Shown: positions 35,642 through 43,713 of the stretch, piece by piece
Position numbering within the stretch: position 1 is the first letter of the stretch
How the letters are laid out: each line of letters begins with the position of its first letter
Translations under genes and position numbers: made by a program
Assembly: GCA_021158265.1 (NCBI GenBank)
Contig: JAGGUY010000015.1
Span: forward strand, 1 to 58,813
Length of the DNA: 58,813 bases
Source of the DNA: Thermoprotei archaeon
GTDB lineage: Archaea > Thermoproteota > Thermoprotei_A > EX4484-217-1
Direction of reading: 5' to 3'
The notes under the pieces: generated by a model
Database searches by the model: none
Told to the model about the DNA's origin: nothing
What the model saw: only the letters and a program-made list of their open reading frames with translations

Positions 35642-36310
35642 ATGGAGATAAAGATAGCTGAGGATGTAAGAAAGCTTGGTGTATTCATAGCTTACCGCTT
35701 TATACACAACATTAAAGTTGAGAAATCAAGGGAAAAACTAAGAGAGGAAATAAACAAGGTTGTAAATGCTGTTAGAAAAAGGTACCGTTTAGATGAGCTC
35801 AAAAATGACCCCATAATTAGGGCGTACCGGAAATTTCTTTGGAAAATAGGAATAGACCCTACTAAGACTAGGCCAAGTAGTGAAGCACTTTTAAGACGCA
35901 TTCTTAGAGGTAAAACTTTACCTTTAATAAATAACGTTGTTGATATTGGAAACTTAGTAAGTGTCAAAACAAGAATTTCCATAGGAATATATGACTTAGA
36001 CCGTATAGAAGGCAACCTAACATTTAGGTTGAGTAGAGGAGGCGAAGAATTCAACCCCATAGGTTCAAACAAATTCTTCTTAAGAGGAGGTATCGTAGTT
36101 CTTTCAGACGGTAAAAGAATAATTCATGTGTATCCTCACAGGGATTGCCAAGACACTATGATTACTTTAAACAGTAAAAACGCAATAGCCATTGGTGCAG
36201 GAGTTCCGGGAATACCTAAAGAGCACGTTTTCCAAGCCATTGAGTTATTAGGAGAATACATTGTAAAATTCAGCGTGGGAGAACCTTCCGAAACGATATT
36301 GGTTAATTAA
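35642..36310 (+). CDS. stand-alone B3/B4 tRNA-binding domain protein (PheRS-beta-like)
   Basis: 222-aa ORF; 'ALLRRILRGKTLPLINNVVDIGNLVSVKTRISIGIYDLD' is typical of the B3_4 domain. Confidence 0.7.
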   Translation: MEIKIAEDVRKLGVFIAYRFIHNIKVEKSREKLREEINKVVNAVRKRYRLDELKNDPIIRAYRKFLWKIGIDPTKTRPSSEALLRRILRGKTLPLINNVVDIGNLVSVKTRISIGIYDLDRIEGNLTFRLSRGGEEFNPIGSNKFFLRGGIVVLSDGKRIIHVYPHRDCQDTMITLNSKNAIAIGAGVPGIPKEHVFQAIELLGEYIVKFSVGEPSETILVN

Positions 36311-36374: not shown

Positions 36375-37469
36375 CTAAATACTCTTTAGTGCTATTAGGT
36401 AAGCGGATGCTGTGTGCTTGTCTAATCCATATCTCATCATTATGTCATCGTGTTCTCTCGAACGAGTTGTACCTTTTGGATTCACATAGTTTACACGTAA
36501 TCCGTAGATGGGCGCTTTCATCGCTATCATTTCTATGATTCTATTTCTAAATATGGATATTCTCCAATTATAGTTTCTATGTAGTCGCCTACCATTCTTA
36601 ATCCAGAAGAACCTTAACCTACCCATTACTTCAGGGTTTTCAAGAACTATAGTTGATACTCCATGGTTGTATGCGCATCTAAGCATCTTATGCACTATCA
36701 TACCAATAACACTCCACGCCCTACTTCTTGGATATCCTCTAGCCGATATTTCTCTGAACCAGAAGGTTTTTGCATCCCTCAGCCTACCATCCGCATCAGT
36801 TATTGCTAAGTTAATCCTATCGGTATTGACATCCACGCCGCCAATTAGATTTCCTTTAGGTTCATCATATCTCTTCGCATGCTTTAGATAGAAATCATAG
36901 GATACTGAGATATGTATCTCTCCTCTAACATACAACTTACTATCTCTAACACCATAGTCTCTAATAATGAGCTTTGGCATGTACTTCTCCCTTAACTCAA
37001 CGACTTCTTTGAGGAGGTCTGCTTGACCCTTGTTTGGTTTAGCGTTTATTAGAATTCTATCCTTTGAGCCATCATAGCCATAGGTTGTTATCAGCGCCGA
37101 GCCATCCTCGTAGACCCTTATGACATTACCGTTTACCTCTCTCTCGTAGTGTTGGAATAGTAACCAATCAGATAGCTCTACATTAGAATAATCTATGCCG
37201 AGACTCCTAGCAGACTCCCATATACCGTAGACTAAGTATACGACACCATAAGAATACCTCTTATTAGGTATAAGCTCATAAGCCTTATTTTTAAACAACT
37301 TTATCCAAGCAACCTTAGATGGTACAAGTACATGTTCTAATTGTTTTGACCTAGAGAGGATTCTATGGCATGCAGTCTTAAATAGCCATGCAGTAGATAG
37401 TATCTTCTTTGCATTCTCACCATTAAAGTTGAATGTTAGTTTAATCGTATATAGTGGTTGTTCTTGCAA
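36375..37469 (-). CDS. tnpB: TnpB-like (IS200/IS605 OrfB-type) RuvC-fold protein lacking the zinc finger
   Basis: RuvC-like triad candidates 'GGVDVNTD', 'IVLENPE', 'GLDKHTASAYLIA'; 'YGLRVNYVNPKGTT' matches the TnpB 'G..V..V.P.YTS' block; TTG start at 37469 proposed, 23 nt downstream of a TATA-like box, giving the N-terminus 'MQEQPLYTIKLTF'. Confidence 0.6.
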   Translation of the reverse strand: MQEQPLYTIKLTFNFNGENAKKILSTAWLFKTACHRILSRSKQLEHVLVPSKVAWIKLFKNKAYELIPNKRYSYGVVYLVYGIWESARSLGIDYSNVELSDWLLFQHYEREVNGNVIRVYEDGSALITTYGYDGSKDRILINAKPNKGQADLLKEVVELREKYMPKLIIRDYGVRDSKLYVRGEIHISVSYDFYLKHAKRYDEPKGNLIGGVDVNTDRINLAITDADGRLRDAKTFWFREISARGYPRSRAWSVIGMIVHKMLRCAYNHGVSTIVLENPEVMGRLRFFWIKNGRRLHRNYNWRISIFRNRIIEMIAMKAPIYGLRVNYVNPKGTTRSREHDDIMMRYGLDKHTASAYLIALKSI

Positions 37470-37486
37470 GGCTATAGCCTCAGAAA

Positions 37487-37497
37487 TATTTATAAAA
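37487..37497 (-). promoter_or_regulatory. TATA-box-like element for the TnpB-like gene
   Basis: Minus strand reads TTTTATAAATA, about 23 nt upstream of the proposed TTG start, consistent with a leaderless archaeal transcript. Confidence 0.4.
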
Positions 37498-37512
37498 TAA
37501 AGGTAATGGTGA

Positions 37513-37592
37513 CCTCGGGGTTCCGAGAGCCGTAGGGCTATGAATCCTCGGGCAACCGAGGACGAGCCTCTACGGTGAGGGGCTCCGAGAGG
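37513..37592 (+). ncRNA. candidate structured sRNA (K-turn plus GNRA hairpin within a GC-rich island)
   Basis: Helices 37513-20/37583-92, 37530-38/37566-75 and 37546-51/37556-61; GCAA loop 37552-55; 3-nt bulge UAU followed by tandem G.A/A.G (37542.37565, 37543.37564); strongly GC-rich against an AT-rich background. Confidence 0.35.
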
Positions 37593-37605
37593 AAGCGTAA
37601 TGACC

Positions 37606-37654
37606 CACCTACCGTGACTAAAATATTCAAAAGCAATAAAAACCACGGTAGGTG
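37606..37654. repeat. perfect 11-bp inverted repeat (hairpin with a 27-nt A/T-rich loop)
   Basis: CACCTACCGTG 37606-37616 and CACGGTAGGTG 37644-37654. Confidence 0.8.
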
Positions 37655-37703: not shown

Positions 37704-38495
37704 TTGGAAATGAAGCCTAAGATCATAGCAACGTTTGTACCAACTGGTGGTAGGAGAATTGTAGAGCTTGCACTTGAAATTCTTAATAAGCCGGGCTCAA
37801 TAGCTAAGATATCATCTCTTCTTGCAGAGCATAACATAAATATTCTGTGGGGTTTTCATGCTGCAGCACCAGAAGATAAGGTAGAAATATGGGGTCTTTT
37901 CGTAGAAGTACCTAAAGATCTCAACTTGAATGAACTAATTTCAAAACTTAAATCATTAAACGTAGTATATTCTGTACGATATTCCGAAAGAAAGTATGGA
38001 CAATTTCTAGTTGATACACTATACTATCCTATATTGACTACAACAGGGGATCAAGTAGCATTACTCTCATAGAATGAATGCGCTGAATTATTCAAATACA
38101 TTAGAGAGAAATACGGTATTGACGCATTACGTGAAATAGGTAAGAGGCTTATTAAAAAATTCGCTAAAAACATGAGTAAAACGCTTAAAGGTATGGAGCT
38201 AAGTGAGGAAGAGCTGATAAAATACATTGCAGACGCATTAACTGTAAAGGGTTACGGTAAATTTGAAGTTAAAGAAATAAGAGAAAGCGAAGGAATAGTA
38301 ATTTTCTCAGTAACCGAAAATATTGAATGTTCAACACTTAAAGAGTTAAAAGAAAACGCTTGGAAGGGCTTAATTGTTGGAATGTTAGAGGAGCTTGCTA
38401 AGGAGGTTTTTGGTAGAGAGGTTAAGGTTAAAGAAGTAATGTATAAGTGTATCAAACAACCGTATTGCGAATACATTGTAAAGTACAAAGAGTAA
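37704..38495 (+). pseudogene. ACT-domain plus V4R-domain protein interrupted by a single in-frame TAG (38070-38072)
   Basis: Track ORFs 37704-38072 and 38172-38495 share one frame; the 33 codons between them are open and read as protein ('NECAELFKYIREKYGIDALREIGKRLIKKFAKN'); the V4R-like region spans the stop and ends 'CIKQPYCEYIV'. Confidence 0.6.
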
Positions 38496-38508: not shown

Positions 38509-39537
38509 ATGAGGAAAATTCAAGGCAGAGTCTTGATAAAGGTAGGAGAAGACATTGAAGTACCTATTTTAGGTTCTATAGCTTTCGGATTAATAGATAG
38601 AGGAACAAATGTTATTCAAGTAAGACCTGTTAGCTTTTGCAATTTGAACTGTATAATGTGCTCAACAGATGCTGGCCCTTATTCTAAGTGGAGGCAGGCA
38701 GAATATTGGGTTCCCCCGGAGATATTGCTAGATGGTGTAAGGGAAATTATTAAGTATAAGGGAATAGATAAGGTAGAAGCTCATATAGATACTGTTGGTG
38801 AACCAACTCTTTACTCAAGGCTTATAGAGCTAGTACAGGGACTTAAGGATATTGGGGAGGTAAAGATTGTAAGTATGCAAACGCATGGACAAAACCTTTC
38901 GGAACATAAGGTTGAAGAACTTTCGGAGGCTGGATTAGATAGGATAAATTTAAGCGTAGACGCTATTGATGAGAAACTAGCTAAATACATACAAGGTGCT
39001 GAATGGTATAATGTAAGAAAGGTTCTTAGGATTGCAGAGTATACGTTAGAGAACACTAAAATAGATATTCACATAGCGCCAGTTTATTTGCCTGGAATAA
39101 ACGATGAAGAAATACCTAAGATAATAAAGTGGGCTTTGAAAACAGGTGCAGGTAAGAAATGGCCACCTCTAGGTATTCAAAAATATATACCGCATAAGCA
39201 TGGGAGAAAAGCTCCTGTAAAGAAGGTTATGAGCTGGTATGAGTTTTGGAATTATTTAAAATCTCTTGAAAGAATGTTTAAAGTTAAACTAATACCTAGG
39301 CTTGAAGATTTCGGCATGTTTAAAACAAAACCTTTACCTAAACCTTTTAGAGTAGGTGAGAAAGTACGGGTTAAAATTGTTGCTCCGGGTTGGCTTAAGG
39401 GGGAGAAGTTAGCTGTTGATTTAAGAGGCTTAAGAACAATAACGGTAGTAAACGCTGAAGAACTCCATGAGGGAGCAAAGGTTTCAGTTAGAATTGTTAG
39501 AAACAAGGATAATATCTATGTTGCAATACCTACCTAA
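38509..39537 (+). CDS. radical SAM protein (archaeal COG2100-like) with a C-terminal beta-barrel-like module
   Basis: 342-aa ORF; 'CNLNCIMC' CxxxCxxC motif; C-terminal 'GEKVRVKIVAPGW...GAKVSVRIV'. Confidence 0.75.
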   Translation: MRKIQGRVLIKVGEDIEVPILGSIAFGLIDRGTNVIQVRPVSFCNLNCIMCSTDAGPYSKWRQAEYWVPPEILLDGVREIIKYKGIDKVEAHIDTVGEPTLYSRLIELVQGLKDIGEVKIVSMQTHGQNLSEHKVEELSEAGLDRINLSVDAIDEKLAKYIQGAEWYNVRKVLRIAEYTLENTKIDIHIAPVYLPGINDEEIPKIIKWALKTGAGKKWPPLGIQKYIPHKHGRKAPVKKVMSWYEFWNYLKSLERMFKVKLIPRLEDFGMFKTKPLPKPFRVGEKVRVKIVAPGWLKGEKLAVDLRGLRTITVVNAEELHEGAKVSVRIVRNKDNIYVAIPT

Positions 39538-39806: not shown

Positions 39807-39904
39807 TGTCTATCTTTCACCTCCCGAAAACATCTTTATCTTAAAGAATTCCTTTTTAACCTTTGCACCCCAATATTACGTATGTTAGTAAAGGGATGTA
39901 GAAC

Positions 39905-40351
39905 ATGAATACTAAAGGCTACGGGAAACTAATTGAAGGGACAGTTATTGTTCTTGATCTTGATAAATTTAAGAAGGTAACTAAGGAGAGAGGATTCAAT
40001 GAGTATAAACCCAACATAATTACTGGAACGCTAACGCATTTAGTTGAAAATTTTGTTCGAAAATGGAATGCCTATGTTCTATACGGACTAGACTATTCTA
40101 GGGGAACAGAGGAAGCAGTAATCATAATACCAATGATAAAGCCTGAAGAAGTATTAGGTGATCTCGAGAAAATACGTAGGGAAATAGAGAAGCTCGGTGC
40201 AACATTAAGTATAGGTGTTAGCTACGGGGTAATAGTTAATATTAAAGCTAGAAATCGAAGAGAAGCTTATGAGAATATTACAGTTAAAAACGCTCTTAAA
40301 GCACTTAGAGAAGCAAAGAGAAAAGGAGGAAATAGAATAGTGATAAAGTGA
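39905..40351 (+). CDS. stand-alone minimal GGDEF/Cas10-palm-like nucleotidyl cyclase domain protein
   Basis: 148-aa ORF; 'VIVLDLDKFKKV', 'SRGTEEAVIIIP', 'ATLSIGVSYG', 'ALKALREAKRKGGNRIVI' are collinear with the GGDEF motifs DxDxFK, GGEEF, SIGVA and AKxxGRN. Confidence 0.6.
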   Translation: MNTKGYGKLIEGTVIVLDLDKFKKVTKERGFNEYKPNIITGTLTHLVENFVRKWNAYVLYGLDYSRGTEEAVIIIPMIKPEEVLGDLEKIRREIEKLGATLSIGVSYGVIVNIKARNRREAYENITVKNALKALREAKRKGGNRIVIK

Positions 40352-40357
40352 GATAGT

Positions 40358-41005
40358 ATGGGCATAGATCTTCATAGAATAGTATCATATACTTTAGCTC
40401 CAAGAAGAGGTATAAAGCCAATAATAAATGAAGCCCATACTGTGAAAACACTTATTCTCCTCTACACTAAAGGTCCTCTTGGAAGACAAGCTTTAAGCAA
40501 AATTTTAGGGATTGGCGAATCCTCCGTTAGGACTCTCATAAGGAGGCTAAAGGAACTCGGCTTAGTTGATGTATCAAAAGCAGGCGGCGCTTATTTAACA
40601 AATACGGGTGAAGCTATTGTTAAGAGGCTTCTTGAGAAAATAGTGCCACCCAAGGTAATAGATATTAGCGACTTAAATTATCTAAAGCTGTCCAGAAAAG
40701 CATGCGCAATAGTGCTAAGAGATTATTGTAGGGAAAAACCCGATGTGCTTCGCATAAGAGATTCTCTTATAAGATATGGTGCAGAAGCAGCATTGATAAT
40801 ATGTGTTAGGAAGGGAAAGTTCATTCTTCTCTCACCACAAGGTAACGGTATTGACGAAACCGTAATCGAAGAATTAAACGAGCTAAAGAACAGATTAAAC
40901 ATAGAACTTCATAATTACGATCTCATATTAGTATCTTATGCTGAAAGCTTGGATAAATGTGAAACCTCTCTTTATAAATTCATAGTTTTAGAAGGGATTG
41001 ACTAA
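40358..41005 (+). CDS. winged-HTH protein with an uncharacterised alpha/beta C-terminal (putative ligand-sensing) domain
   Basis: 215-aa ORF starting 6 nt after the cyclase-like gene; HTH 'LGRQALSKILGIGESSVRTLIRRLKELGLV'. Confidence 0.55.
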   Translation: MGIDLHRIVSYTLAPRRGIKPIINEAHTVKTLILLYTKGPLGRQALSKILGIGESSVRTLIRRLKELGLVDVSKAGGAYLTNTGEAIVKRLLEKIVPPKVIDISDLNYLKLSRKACAIVLRDYCREKPDVLRIRDSLIRYGAEAALIICVRKGKFILLSPQGNGIDETVIEELNELKNRLNIELHNYDLILVSYAESLDKCETSLYKFIVLEGID

Positions 41006-41768
41006 AGTGAGTATTGAGAGAATAGAAAAAATAGCTAAAAGCTTAGGTGGATTAATTGATTACAAGTACGTTAAAATTGTTTTAGGTAAGAATGATCCTA
41101 AAGTTCTAATAGACATTCCAATAACAGTAAATACTAAAAACGTATATGGTTACTTATCAGCAATCTATACGTTAATGAACCCCACACTTGCTAAGAAAAT
41201 TAAAGGAACTATAATTTTGCGAACATACTTTAAATACCACATAGCTGAGCATGTTTTGCAGGAAGAGGAATTTGACTATGCTTTCGAAACTTTATTTTTT
41301 GACGAAAGCGTGGGTTACATTGTGTCTAAAGATTTAGTTCTAGAGAAAATACCTGTAATGCGTTGGAATGAGAGAAAAGACGTTATCGTGCCTTATATGG
41401 GTTTATGGAGCGAAAACATGGTTTCCGAATTGAACTTTAATCTCATAGTTTCTCTTCTCAACGAAATAGGGATCTTAGATTTCAGTATCAATGATTTTAG
41501 CAAAGAATATCTTGAAACACTTAAAGTTCTCAAAAATTATGGCAACATTGTTTTAGAAAGTGTAAGTAGGTTGGGGATAGCAGTACCTAAAGTTAATGTT
41601 CTAGATAAAGTGAATGAAAACATGTTAGTCTTAGAGGTTAGAAGTTTCCTAAACGAAGTTATCGACGCTGTTAGAGCTAAGAAGGATGGTATTGTTTTAA
41701 GTTTGATGAAGGGCATTATTTGGGAAAATATTGGAAACTATCTCTTAGCTATTGCTTTTTCTCAATAA
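40998..41768 (+). CDS. hypothetical protein, third gene of the cassette
   Basis: 256-aa ORF; TTG start overlaps the upstream stop by 8 nt (alternative GTG at 41007); no motif recognised. Confidence 0.5.
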   Translation: MTKVSIERIEKIAKSLGGLIDYKYVKIVLGKNDPKVLIDIPITVNTKNVYGYLSAIYTLMNPTLAKKIKGTIILRTYFKYHIAEHVLQEEEFDYAFETLFFDESVGYIVSKDLVLEKIPVMRWNERKDVIVPYMGLWSENMVSELNFNLIVSLLNEIGILDFSINDFSKEYLETLKVLKNYGNIVLESVSRLGIAVPKVNVLDKVNENMLVLEVRSFLNEVIDAVRAKKDGIVLSLMKGIIWENIGNYLLAIAFSQ

Positions 41769-43713
41769 CTTTCACTGAACCATAACCTACATAAACTATT
41801 TTGTCAGGAACTAGAGCGTCAAGAACTTCGCTTCTATTAGTAGCTACAATAACTGTTATTCCCGCTTTCCTAGCTATTTCTGAAAGCTTTCTAGCAACCC
41901 TTCTAGCAGTTAAGGCATCAAGGTGCGCTGTAAATTCATCAATAATTAAGACGTTGGGTTTTTCAGCTAGTAAACTTGCTAATTTAGCTCTCTCCTTCTG
42001 TCCTGTTGAGAGCTCCGAGAATTTTGCTCTATAGAAAACAGCGTCCGATAATCCACACATGTTAAGTATTTCCACAGATACGAATTCATCCCCGGTTTTA
42101 TCATAGATGTGCTCTAGGATGCTTTCATCTCCAAACGTCGGCTCTAACTCTCCCGGTAAAAGTATTGAAAGCTTTATGTTCTTAGGAACATTAATTTCAC
42201 CTCTTGATGGGATATATCTCTTATCTGTAAGCTTTAATGCTGCACCAGCAATCATTCTAAGTAATGTTGTTTTTCCAGCACCAGAAACCCCAACAACAGC
42301 TACTATTTCCTTAGGCTTTATAGTTAAGTTCACATGGTGTAGAACAGTTTTTTCAATGATTCTCTTTTCGACACCGAAAGCCCTAAGAACATCCTGTAAT
42401 TTTTCCGAAAGCCTACTAATGTCAAGAAGGTTTCTGTATGTTTTTGTAACGTCGCTTAAGACTATGGGTTCAGCTATTACCTCCACTTTACCGTATCTAC
42501 TTCTGTACAGCTTCCCTCCATGCTTTTTAGCGTAGGGATCTTCCTTCAGAAACTTAGCTATTTTCTCTCTGGCAATTTCGGTTAGCGGATAATAAAGGAC
42601 AGGTCTACCACTCGCTGTTTCCCATAGAAAAATAAAACCTGCTTTTTCGAAGAACGGATTATACCTTGCCATTTGAGCTATTGTTTCCACTAAATGCTTT
42701 CTTCTCTTCATTTCCGGAACTCTTCTCTCTCTTATCCAGTCTATTGCTGCTCTAACAGCTAATACTCCTAAACCATCTCCTCTATAGTCTGGGTGTATGA
42801 CGACTCTAGCTATTCTTGAAACAGCCGTGTTTGCGGCTTTCAATAGCTCCTTTCTGAGCTCATCACCTATCATTGCCTTAGCTATCCTTTTACCATAAAT
42901 TGAAACAAGTTCACGATACTTCTTCATTAATTCTCTTCTTTTAGTATAAGCTTCAGGCCAAAATGTCGGATGGAACCATGATTTTCCAAAAACTCTTTCC
43001 CTAATAAATTTCTCAATAATAACTGTCCCCTTTTCATCAACAACCTTCCTTGACATTAAAGGTATTGGAGTATCTACTCTTACATATCCTACAATTCTGG
43101 GTTCATAGGGTTCTCTTTTAGCAAGCTCTAAAACTAGGAATCTTGATGAGGGTAATGAGCCCTTTATTTCAACAAGCTTTGCCTCAATATTGCATGTAGG
43201 ACATATGGGCGGGGTATTTGATTGGAAGAATTTACCGCATTTCGGGCATCTCCAAACAGCTACTACAATCTTCTGAGAAGCGTAATGATACTGTTCTAGG
43301 TTAACAATATTTCTATAGTCTTCTTCACTAAGAGCCTCCCTAGCTATAACCTCATACCTATAGAGTTCTTTGCCAGTTACAGAATCGTATCTTGGAAGTA
43401 CAAATTTCCTACGATAAATAGGCCATACCTTAATATGTTCATCTCCCCATATCCTATAGAGCTCATAATCGTCATAATATAGGATATGTTTGTTAAAGAA
43501 TCTCTTAGGTATCTCCTTAATTACAAGCTTTACCTTTTCACCTTCAATAAGCCATTGGGCAATATTCCCCATCATAAGTAAGTTTATTTCCCCTAAGCCC
43601 CTCACGTCAACTGTAACATGTCCTTGCCATCTATATCCATATTCAGGAACACTAGCTTCTCTAATAACCCCGTAGTGTACTCCTAAAACCGATTTACTAA
43701 GTAGTGAAGACAA
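41749..43713 (-). CDS. multidomain protein: unknown N-domain, Zn ribbon, GNAT acetyltransferase and a single ABC ATPase domain
   Basis: 654-aa ORF; 'CPKCGKFFQSNTPPICPTC'; GNAT 'VVIHPDYRGDGLGVLAVRAAIDW'; Walker A 'GVSGAGKTT', signature 'LSTGQKERA', Walker B 'LIIDEFTAHLD'. Confidence 0.7.
   Translation of the reverse strand: MSSLLSKSVLGVHYGVIREASVPEYGYRWQGHVTVDVRGLGEINLLMMGNIAQWLIEGEKVKLVIKEIPKRFFNKHILYYDDYELYRIWGDEHIKVWPIYRRKFVLPRYDSVTGKELYRYEVIAREALSEEDYRNIVNLEQYHYASQKIVVAVWRCPKCGKFFQSNTPPICPTCNIEAKLVEIKGSLPSSRFLVLELAKREPYEPRIVGYVRVDTPIPLMSRKVVDEKGTVIIEKFIRERVFGKSWFHPTFWPEAYTKRRELMKKYRELVSIYGKRIAKAMIGDELRKELLKAANTAVSRIARVVIHPDYRGDGLGVLAVRAAIDWIRERRVPEMKRRKHLVETIAQMARYNPFFEKAGFIFLWETASGRPVLYYPLTEIAREKIAKFLKEDPYAKKHGGKLYRSRYGKVEVIAEPIVLSDVTKTYRNLLDISRLSEKLQDVLRAFGVEKRIIEKTVLHHVNLTIKPKEIVAVVGVSGAGKTTLLRMIAGAALKLTDKRYIPSRGEINVPKNIKLSILLPGELEPTFGDESILEHIYDKTGDEFVSVEILNMCGLSDAVFYRAKFSELSTGQKERAKLASLLAEKPNVLIIDEFTAHLDALTARRVARKLSEIARKAGITVIVATNRSEVLDALVPDKIVYVGYGSVKVIEKKQ

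Follow-up and report, generated by a model that had tools for sequence, protein, structure and literature searches.

The 58,813-nucleotide (nt) contig JAGGUY010000015.1 of a Thermoprotei archaeon (GenBank assembly GCA_021158265.1), analyzed here over its whole length and referred to as the window, harbors at positions 39905-41768 a compact set of three genes, the products of which are denoted P1, P2 and P3. P1 displays in its predicted structure the palm fold of GGDEF domains and class III cyclases and, to judge from its homologues, is a typical representative of an archaeal family whose stand-alone proteins, truncated and of GGDEF type, are conserved and inherited vertically; it will be termed the RGTEE family after its characteristic motif. 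The three-gene arrangement is a lineage-specific operon and no general module. That P1 belongs to this family and that the cassette is not general can be regarded as highly probable. The combined reading put forward here, namely that P1 is a palm enzyme of a conserved family which condenses nucleoside triphosphates (NTPs) and heads a lineage-specific operon, is assigned a probability of about 0.5.

A preliminary description of the locus had found P1 collinear by eye with the GGDEF palm and had called for profile and structure comparisons, and both bear the assignment out. P1 matches the Pfam GGDEF profile PF00990 over profile positions 34-161 (E=1.1e-4, 22.4 bits, cut-off 23.8), TIGR00254 with 32.2 bits (cut-off 37.4) and, within the PDB, the GGDEF domain of E. 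coli DosC (E=9e-5). GGDEF models are thus matched in the C-terminal 80% of their length. Aligned by hhalign, 24 diverse P1 relatives and genuine bacterial GGDEF domains, the latter taken as comparison set from loci L040-L080 of the genome scan described below, match with a probability of 96.9% and an E-value of 1.7e-10. The AF2 model of P1 has a pLDDT of 92.4. In a Foldseek search of the PDB with this model, the top 13 entries are GGDEF domains (probability 1.0, TM 0.57-0.66), among them those of DosC, WspR, DgcB and PleD, followed by mycobacterial class III adenylyl cyclases. When a viral structure library is searched instead, phage diguanylate cyclases (DGCs) rank first.

The label of an orphan, which P1 had initially received, has to be given up. 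A homologue search yielded at least 100 cluster representatives with E-values down to 8e-20, and P1 is identical (100%) to an NCBI entry named 'GGDEF domain-containing protein'. Conservation is given in the following for the 100 cluster representatives listed among the P1 matches. All of them (100/100) are stand-alone proteins of 110-180 amino acids (aa), the family being typically about 145 aa long. The hosts comprise Desulfurococcales (including Staphylothermus hellenicus), Fervidicoccus fontis, Nezhaarchaeota and several Asgard lineages. Scanning P1 and 24 members revealed no Pfam or NCBIfam model dedicated to the family, and no description of the RGTEE motif was found in the papers searched; domain censuses miss the family because it scores just below threshold.

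The active-site region of P1 can be followed residue by residue. In register with GGDEF domains are D18 and D20 as the DxD metal site of strand 1, G67-T68-E69-E70-A71 at the place of G-G-D/E-E-F, SIGV at the place of SIG, and K138 as the lysine of AK..G(R)N. The motifs of P1 accordingly read D18-L-D20-x-F, Y34-K-P-N37-x-x-T40-G, G61-L-D63-x-x-R66-G-T-E-E70 and A130..L134..K138..G-G-N. Among the listed members D18, F22, N37, G61, G67, T68, E69 and E70 are invariant (100/100), D20 is found in 98 and K138 in 99 of the 100 sequences, and T40 and R66 are conserved to 98-99%. As strings, GTEE occurs in all 100 sequences, RGTEE in 99 and DxDxF in 98, whereas residue 71 may be A, V, C or T across the family. 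The motif correspondences initially proposed (DxD, GTEE, SIGV and the C-terminal lysine) are thereby reproduced in the alignments, and P1 presents itself as the expected minimal, sensor-less palm of GGDEF/class III type with both acidic motifs and the catalytic lysine kept.

The loss of the guanine determinants and of the I-site, likewise proposed before, is seen as well. The column of the guanine-reading Asn (DxFKxxN) is occupied by T26, a position variable in the family (T/V/M/S), and that of the guanine-reading Asp (GHxxGD) by K35; no RxxD was found upstream of the hairpin on inspection of the P1 sequence. Instead of this Asn/Asp couple the family carries the invariant N37 together with T40 at the start of helix 2. 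Y34, P36, N37, T40, D63, R66 and G142 are the family-specific replacements for the guanine-reading residues and one phosphate-binding arginine, G142 standing in 98 of the 100 listed members for the Arg of GRN. Near-invariant acidic residues and an equally conserved lysine suggest an active-site-like pattern with family-specific substrate contacts, which would lie where helix 2 begins (Y34-K-P-N37-x-x-T40-G) and ahead of the hairpin (G61-L-D63). As three real genes with homologues are involved and the P1 motifs are conserved to about 99% over 100 relatives, the observation lies far beyond chance.

The preliminary description had placed three tightly spaced open reading frames (ORFs) in 39905-41768, and all three are confirmed there (Table 1). 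With only 6 nt between the stop codon of P1 and the start of P2, and P3 following directly, they are packed in a way that looks like a single transcription unit. An overlap between the P2 stop and the P3 start had been part of this picture. Tight coupling results either way, but the overlap itself is probably not real: P3 homologues begin at 'VSIERIEK', which makes GTG 41007, located 1 nt past the P2 stop, the probable start of P3 instead of an 8-nt overlap.

Upstream of P1, an A/T-rich, TATA-box-like element, CACCCCAATATTAC, is located at about 39866-39879, 26-33 nt 5' of the P1 ATG, and an alignment of six clade members displays at the TATA-like element an invariant core C..AATA.TA. We infer that this element is the P1 promoter and that the transcript would be leaderless or carry a short leader. 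A palindrome, AAAGAATTCCTT, at 39843-39854 was considered as a conserved operator 5' of P1 and discarded, as it is not kept across the six clade members. The position of the small divergent ORF on the other side of this intergenic region is kept within the clade (L001, L082-84, L096, L002 and L003; 88-102 aa), while its sequence evolves fast (21-76% identity). It has no family match in Pfam, NCBIfam or PADLOC and is treated here as context.

Table 1. Features in and around the three-gene cassette (positions refer to the window).
Feature	Position	Strand	Length and remarks
P1, N-truncated stand-alone GGDEF-type palm protein, archaeal RGTEE family	39905..40351	+	148 aa, ATG
P2, putative transcription regulator, winged helix-turn-helix + DUF4443	40358..41005	+	215 aa
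P3, soluble, no family match	40998..41768	+	256 aa from TTG; 253 aa if GTG 41007
Small divergent ORF upstream of P1	39534..39806	-	90 aa, no family match
Radical SAM protein, MoaA/Tes-like core, C-terminal beta-rich tail	38509..39537	+	342 aa
Divergent intergenic region, 90-aa ORF to P1	39807..39904	.	98 nt; TATA-like element

In order to see how far the cassette is conserved, archaeal genomes were scanned with a pattern built from 8 sequences, which delivered 39 archaeal palm loci (L001-L039), phylogenetically non-independent, besides ordinary bacterial GGDEFs (L040-L080). Among the 39 archaeal loci, P2 and P3 profile matches lie beside the palm gene in L001-L003 only, and the cassette was further encountered in loci reached via P2 or P3 relatives (L082-84 and L096). 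Conservation throughout the family is ruled out by this distribution. The gene order of the clade is GDH, YjbQ, (B3_4), (ACT-V4R), radical SAM, small minus-strand ORF, palm, P2, P3 and pyrophosphatase, with a spacing between P1, P2 and P3 of -17 to +24 nt. P1 is the slowest-evolving protein of the block: identities to the window protein range from 63 to 81%, versus 35-77% for P2 and 21-63% for the positional orthologues of P3, the lower figure being in each case the lowest within the clade. Hence the three genes are indeed tightly coupled, as had been surmised, and kept together in relatives of the window lineage; the synteny in relatives on which the proposal had been made to depend is found in close relatives but not beyond the narrow clade. 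Conservation of the trio as such adds little because the entire surrounding region is syntenic in the same clade.

P2 turned out as the preliminary description had guessed, with an N-terminal winged helix-turn-helix (wHTH) and a DUF4443 domain, both above the Pfam cut-off. The wHTH is of PH0730-like/CggR-like type (residues ~34-92; PF22167, 41.6 bits, gathering score 30.2), and DUF4443 occupies residues ~113-207 (PF14544, 41.2 bits, gathering score 27). Residues 31-200 match the PDB entry 2p8t (PH0730 from Pyrococcus horikoshii) with E=4.6e-11; like P2, this protein combines a wHTH with a DUF4443 domain of GAD-like fold and, to our knowledge, is itself without known function. Folded alone, the C-terminal domain of P2 gives a model with a pLDDT of 90.2. 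The only Foldseek matches of this model with meaningful scores are PH0730, in first place, and after it the GAD insertion domains known from bacterial AspRS and from GatE. The model thus has the GAD fold, and on this ground a CARF, SAVED, GAF, cNMP-binding or PilZ sensor is ruled out for the domain. The PADLOC matches of P2 to Csa3, CasR and CARF models are confined to the wHTH (residues 28-89).

A P2 homologue with 41% identity has no palm gene nearby but adjoins genes for ornithine carbamoyltransferase, a diphthamide-synthase-like protein and NAD kinase. Since P2 homologues occur in unrelated contexts, the family is not dedicated to the palm gene. In L081 (3939-5642), a locus with these neighbors, the P2-family gene is arranged divergently from the ornithine carbamoyltransferase gene, and the other two genes follow the P2-family gene. 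This is a hint that elsewhere among the archaea such regulators may have a part in the metabolism of amino acids or in other metabolic functions.

No match to P3 was obtained in Pfam, NCBIfam, the PDB or PADLOC, in agreement with the earlier remark that it contains no recognizable motif. The word-indexed homologues of P3 number five, and an exhaustive profile search retrieved three representative clusters among 1.84 billion proteins; as far as sequence comparison goes, P3 is lineage-restricted and fast-evolving. The positional orthologues in L002 (9105-9938) and L003 (2834-3670) have 277 and 278 aa and are about 21% identical to P3 of the window. They show weak, sub-threshold C-terminal matches of the barrel-sandwich-hybrid type (RnfC_N, biotin-lipoyl-like, DUF2118), which constitute the sole fold hint for P3.

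Taken together as a mechanism, P1 would be an active two-metal enzyme, with a bound NTP that would be other than, or not restricted to, GTP. Because it possesses no dimerizing sensor domain, P1 would have to self-associate, in the manner of mCpol or of an isolated GGDEF domain, and the 3'-OH of one nucleotide would attack the alpha-phosphate of the other. A (cyclic) di- or short oligonucleotide would be the product; that such a (cyclic) oligonucleotide is released in free form has slightly less than even odds. In the window lineage only, P1 would head an operon driven from a conserved TATA-like promoter of its own and would be translationally coupled to P2 and P3. The latter two would then represent a lineage-specific regulatory attachment to an enzyme of housekeeping type, and no mobile signalling or defence module.

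Several points weigh against this reading. P1 reaches neither of the curated thresholds of PF00990 and TIGR00254, and only 9 of the 24 family members match PF00990 at E<=1, the best with 3.8e-5. The GG[DE]EF signature is incomplete, its second Gly and its Phe being replaced (GTEE-A) with both acidic residues kept. In the RGTEE family, furthermore, neither the Lys and the Asn of DxFKxxN nor the Arg of GRN is conserved, which makes classical DGC catalysis doubtful. Positions 1-33 of the GGDEF profile, the part that normally connects the domain to a dimerizing sensor, are absent from P1. The P1 model was compared with GGDEF structures by Foldseek and profile alignments only, and its metal ligands were judged from alignments. 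We know of no RGTEE family member with known activity, product or oligomeric state, and could name no receptor for any P1 product. The family is probably not new, as descriptions in older papers suggest. MK0296 and APE1864 were left out of the count of GGDEF domains as 'truncated sequences' (Galperin 2005, PMC1183210), and archaeal truncated GGDEFs were later predicted to be active enzymes but unlikely signalling proteins (Anantharaman et al., 2010, PMC2904730). RGTEE proteins probably are the MK0296/APE1864 family of these papers, a link made likely by a metagenome-assembled genome of Aeropyrum, which encodes a clear family member (L029).

Outside the clade the palm gene has other neighbors. 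TATA-binding protein (TBP) is its immediate neighbor in 24 of the 39 loci (co-directional in 17, divergent in 4 and convergent in 3). This adjacency is seen in most Desulfurococcales (within L004-L039, e.g. L009 7262-7852 and 7950-8423), where it survives local inversions. It could be functional or inherited gene order; a comparison with the neighbor clusters revealed no TBP gene among the window ORFs. Other recurrent neighbors are an M48 peptidase, a metallophosphoesterase, a radical SAM enzyme, GDH, a DNA ligase, a GPN-type NTPase and DUF2070. In Acidilobaceae the palm gene adjoins S26e, in Fervidicoccus it is found between metallophosphoesterase and radical SAM genes, and in Nezhaarchaeota between the genes of an RsmB-type methyltransferase and a TRAM protein. 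In one Asgard lineage (L085/L086 3422-5474) the last 8 nt of a TGT-family gene lie within the palm gene, which is followed by PNP, and in another the palm gene is flanked by FtsX and a PHP phosphoesterase. For an Asgard group (L033 7965-9129, L087 and L095) the PHP_C phosphoesterase was located 30-40 nt downstream of the palm gene, and in one lineage (L092 2883-4462) the palm start shares 4 nt with the gene of a HisKA/HATPase_c histidine kinase. Translationally coupled partners thus vary from phylum to phylum. A partner common to all phyla was looked for and does not emerge: TBP, metallophosphoesterase, radical SAM, PHP, TGT, RsmB/TRAM and histidine kinase are each lineage-limited.

After TBP, the most widely recurring neighbor is the radical SAM gene, which remains in loose linkage with the palm gene throughout Desulfurococcales. 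The distance between the two is at most 5 kb in 12 of the 39 loci and at most 8 kb in about 15, in several orientations. Such recurrence is a hint at a functional link. The radical SAM protein of the window matches Pfam Radical_SAM with 5.8e-25, and its similarity to NCBIfam and PDB entries is generic only. In several genomes of Desulfurococcales and Fervidicoccus a small RrnaAD-like S-adenosylmethionine methyltransferase gene overlaps the radical SAM start (L002 5970-7498; L090 5442-7020), which suggests that the two may form an RNA-modification pair.

From this pattern a housekeeping role can be construed as the main alternative, in which P1 would be a nucleotidyltransferase acting on RNA or nucleic-acid ends, Thg1-like or an RNA-specific GGDEF relative, and P2 and P3 would be unrelated neighbors. 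RNA-related genes adjoin the palm gene in distant phyla (TGT/PNP, RsmB-type/TRAM, radical SAM with the RrnaAD-like methyltransferase, S26e), the GAD fold seen in P2 occurs otherwise in AspRS and GatE, and P1 evolves slowly and is apparently present as a single copy per locus. Also, an RNA-specific nucleotidyltransferase activity has been raised for some GGDEF domains, those of archaea being considered unlikely signalling proteins (Anantharaman et al., PMC2904730). Translation and RNA-modification genes, however, are very common among conserved archaeal genes and the RNA theme may be chance; no RNA-related partner is common to the phyla. P1 contains no recognizable RNA-binding domain and its closest structures are cyclases, neither Thg1 nor polymerases, so that this role appears rather unlikely.

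In the opposite direction, the overlapping histidine kinase and the adjacent PHP phosphoesterase in Asgard archaea are hints at a signalling role of the family elsewhere. It can be imagined that the RGTEE family is an archaeal counterpart of GGDEF signalling: a minimal, constitutively expressed and self-oligomerizing cyclase would produce a messenger other than c-di-GMP in Thermoprotei, Nezhaarchaeota and Asgard archaea, lineage-specific readers (here the GAD domain of P2) would sense it, and in other lineages a histidine kinase would provide the input and PHP or metallophosphoesterases the degradation. This is quite improbable; if it were true, the long-enigmatic GAD/DUF4443 fold would gain a ligand.

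The preliminary description had gone further and seen in the trio a system of cyclase, ligand sensor and effector of the mCpol or conflict type, with P1 producing a messenger, the DUF4443 protein P2 binding it and altering transcription, and P3 as effector. The coupling of the three genes does persist while P2 falls to 35% and P3 to 21% identity, the fast evolution of P3 would be compatible with a component in an arms race, the wHTH of P2 resembles that of Csa3/CasR, and with mCpol there is already a minimal palm protein that generates a signal (PMC12657218, PMC12657230). But the trio is confined to a single clade in which the surroundings are equally syntenic, and P1 stands without both partners in 33 of the 36 other archaeal loci of the scan as well as in every distant context consulted. 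P2 homologues, in turn, exist without a palm gene, and the GAD fold of DUF4443 is no known cyclic-nucleotide sensor fold. A conflict function finds no counterpart in the data either: P1 and P3 match no PADLOC defence model, viral contigs yielded no copy of the RGTEE family, neither a CRISPR array nor a tRNA or Rfam element was detected in the window, and the genes flanking the cassette are metabolic or housekeeping, without mobile context or a defence island. Slowest-evolving of the block and taxonomically broad, P1 is therefore the opposite of a patchy defence gene, and a single signalling or conflict module made up of all three proteins is very unlikely.

Hardly credible, finally, is P1 as a non-catalytic module for binding nucleotides or proteins, a degenerate GGDEF domain as in GdpP or PelD that serves as a regulatory subunit, for example of the transcription machinery near TBP; the changes GG to GT and F to A, the lost DGC Lys, Asn and Arg, the weak match of 9 of the 24 members to a GdpP-type degenerate GGDEF model, the place of TBP as immediate neighbor and the older treatment of such sequences as truncated and not counted as cyclases would fit, but D18, E69 and E70 (100%) and D20 and K138 (98-99%) are conserved over Thermoprotei, Nezhaarchaeota and Asgard archaea, where degenerate GGDEF domains normally lose acidic residues, and the TBP adjacency may be gene order inherited within Desulfurococcales.

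Further observations concern the stretches on both sides of the cassette. The ACT-domain ORF at 37704-38072 and the V4R-like ORF at 38172-38495 correspond to a single gene of 260-270 aa in L001 and L082-84. In the window this gene is split by a change from TGG (Trp) to TAG at 38070-38072 (ALLS*NEC versus ALLSWNEC), for which a nonsense mutation with pseudogene formation, a sequencing error or read-through are the alternatives. The minus strand at 36375-37646 encodes a 423-aa ORF without Pfam match, whose C-terminus gives weak matches to TnpB-related (E=2.4e-4) and Cas12f2 (6e-3) models. As the otherwise syntenic loci L001, L082-84 and L096 lack this ORF, a divergent TnpB-like element seems to have been inserted here. 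Between YjbQ and this insertion a stand-alone B3/4-domain protein of 222 aa (35642-36310) is encoded, related to the PheRS beta-subunit domain; its gene is present in L096 and absent from L001 and L082-84, marking a variable stretch. On the other side, a 654-aa fusion protein (41749-43713, minus strand), in which a GNAT acetyltransferase and an ABC-type ATPase are joined to an N-terminal region that contains a zinc-ribbon-like motif, is encoded convergently with P3, the end of which it overlaps by 20 nt. The ATPase part matches PADLOC mad3 (E=1e-28) and mad8 (5e-17). Shared by the window and L001, missing from L082-84 and broken into fragments in L096, the fusion is a variable accessory gene.

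The significance of the locus hence resides in P1, a divergent, truncated variant of the GGDEF palm from a family that is conserved, uncharacterized and glimpsed in older papers; no new system is shown, and the three-gene 'system' matters much less because its arrangement is lineage-specific. Across Desulfurococcales, Fervidicoccus, Nezhaarchaeota and Asgard archaea, a truncated palm of GGDEF type is found whose two-metal site looks intact and whose motifs are conserved to about 99%. If active, P1 would point to a nucleotide messenger new for archaea or to an RNA-directed nucleotidyltransferase of a new kind, and would be relevant to the common origin that has been proposed for the GGDEF, Thg1 and Cas10 palms (PMC2904730). 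The proteins of the family are small and thermostable and occur in the cultivated Staphylothermus hellenicus and Fervidicoccus fontis and in Aeropyrum, so that the family is directly testable. In the literature, GGDEF domains or diguanylate cyclases and c-di-GMP are treated as essentially absent from archaea (PMC5847659, PMC10249747), in line with the preliminary description, which had called such signalling not established there, and c-di-GMP has so far gone undetected in archaea (PMC10249747, PMC8646023). It is because archaea are thought to lack GGDEF-type signalling that the enzyme family is worth an assay.

Compared with known systems, P1 shares the palm fold with bacterial GGDEF domains (PF00990; PleD, WspR, DosC, DgcB) at TM values of 0.57-0.66, with the DxD metal site, the acidic pair of the hairpin, the SIG strand and the AK lysine in register. 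Where the bacterial domains have RxGG[DE]EF, P1 has RGTEE-A, and it is without about 33 first profile positions. Also unlike its bacterial counterparts, it shows no I-site, no fusion to sensor or REC domains (in any of the 100 listed members) and an archaeal distribution. Membership in the class III adenylyl and guanylyl cyclases is not supported, as neither P1 nor the 24 members match the Pfam Guanylate_cyc model and the structural matches Ma1120 and Rv1900c rank below GGDEF with 10-17% identity to P1. The Cas10 palm of type III systems likewise finds no support: P1 is a stand-alone protein of 148 aa without any cas model match, and no CRISPR-like array lies in the window. A single weak match to Cas10 palm2 was obtained, for one of the 24 members (E=0.11).

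MK0296 from M. kandleri (Q8TYK1) and APE1864 from A. pernix (Q9YAS9), compared here by description, are archaeal, short and stand-alone like P1. They were described with three acidic catalytic residues and without signalling-domain partners, a description that the RGTEE family meets. Motif, phyletic breadth (Asgard archaea and Nezhaarchaeota being then unknown), gene context and function were not given in those papers.

The minimal, sensor-less palm mCpol/OptS of the Panoptes anti-phage system (PMC12657218, PMC12657230, PMC13577387) is similar in size to P1, self-oligomerizes and constitutively makes cyclic di- or tri-nucleotides (PMC12657218). Membership of P1 in mCpol is not supported, as none of the 24 family members matches mCpol in Pfam at E<=1 and GGDEF comes first in sequence and structure. 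Of the operon partners of OptS, i.e. S-2TMbeta, CARF-TM, SAVED-TM or HEPN (PMC12657218), none is seen with P1, nor was one found in the 39 loci or the distant contexts. In contrast to OptS, where the GGDEF motif is 'nearly absent', P1 retains the GGDEF-like C-terminal helix and the EE pair, and while mCpol is rare and patchy, the RGTEE family is conserved and resides in housekeeping neighborhoods.

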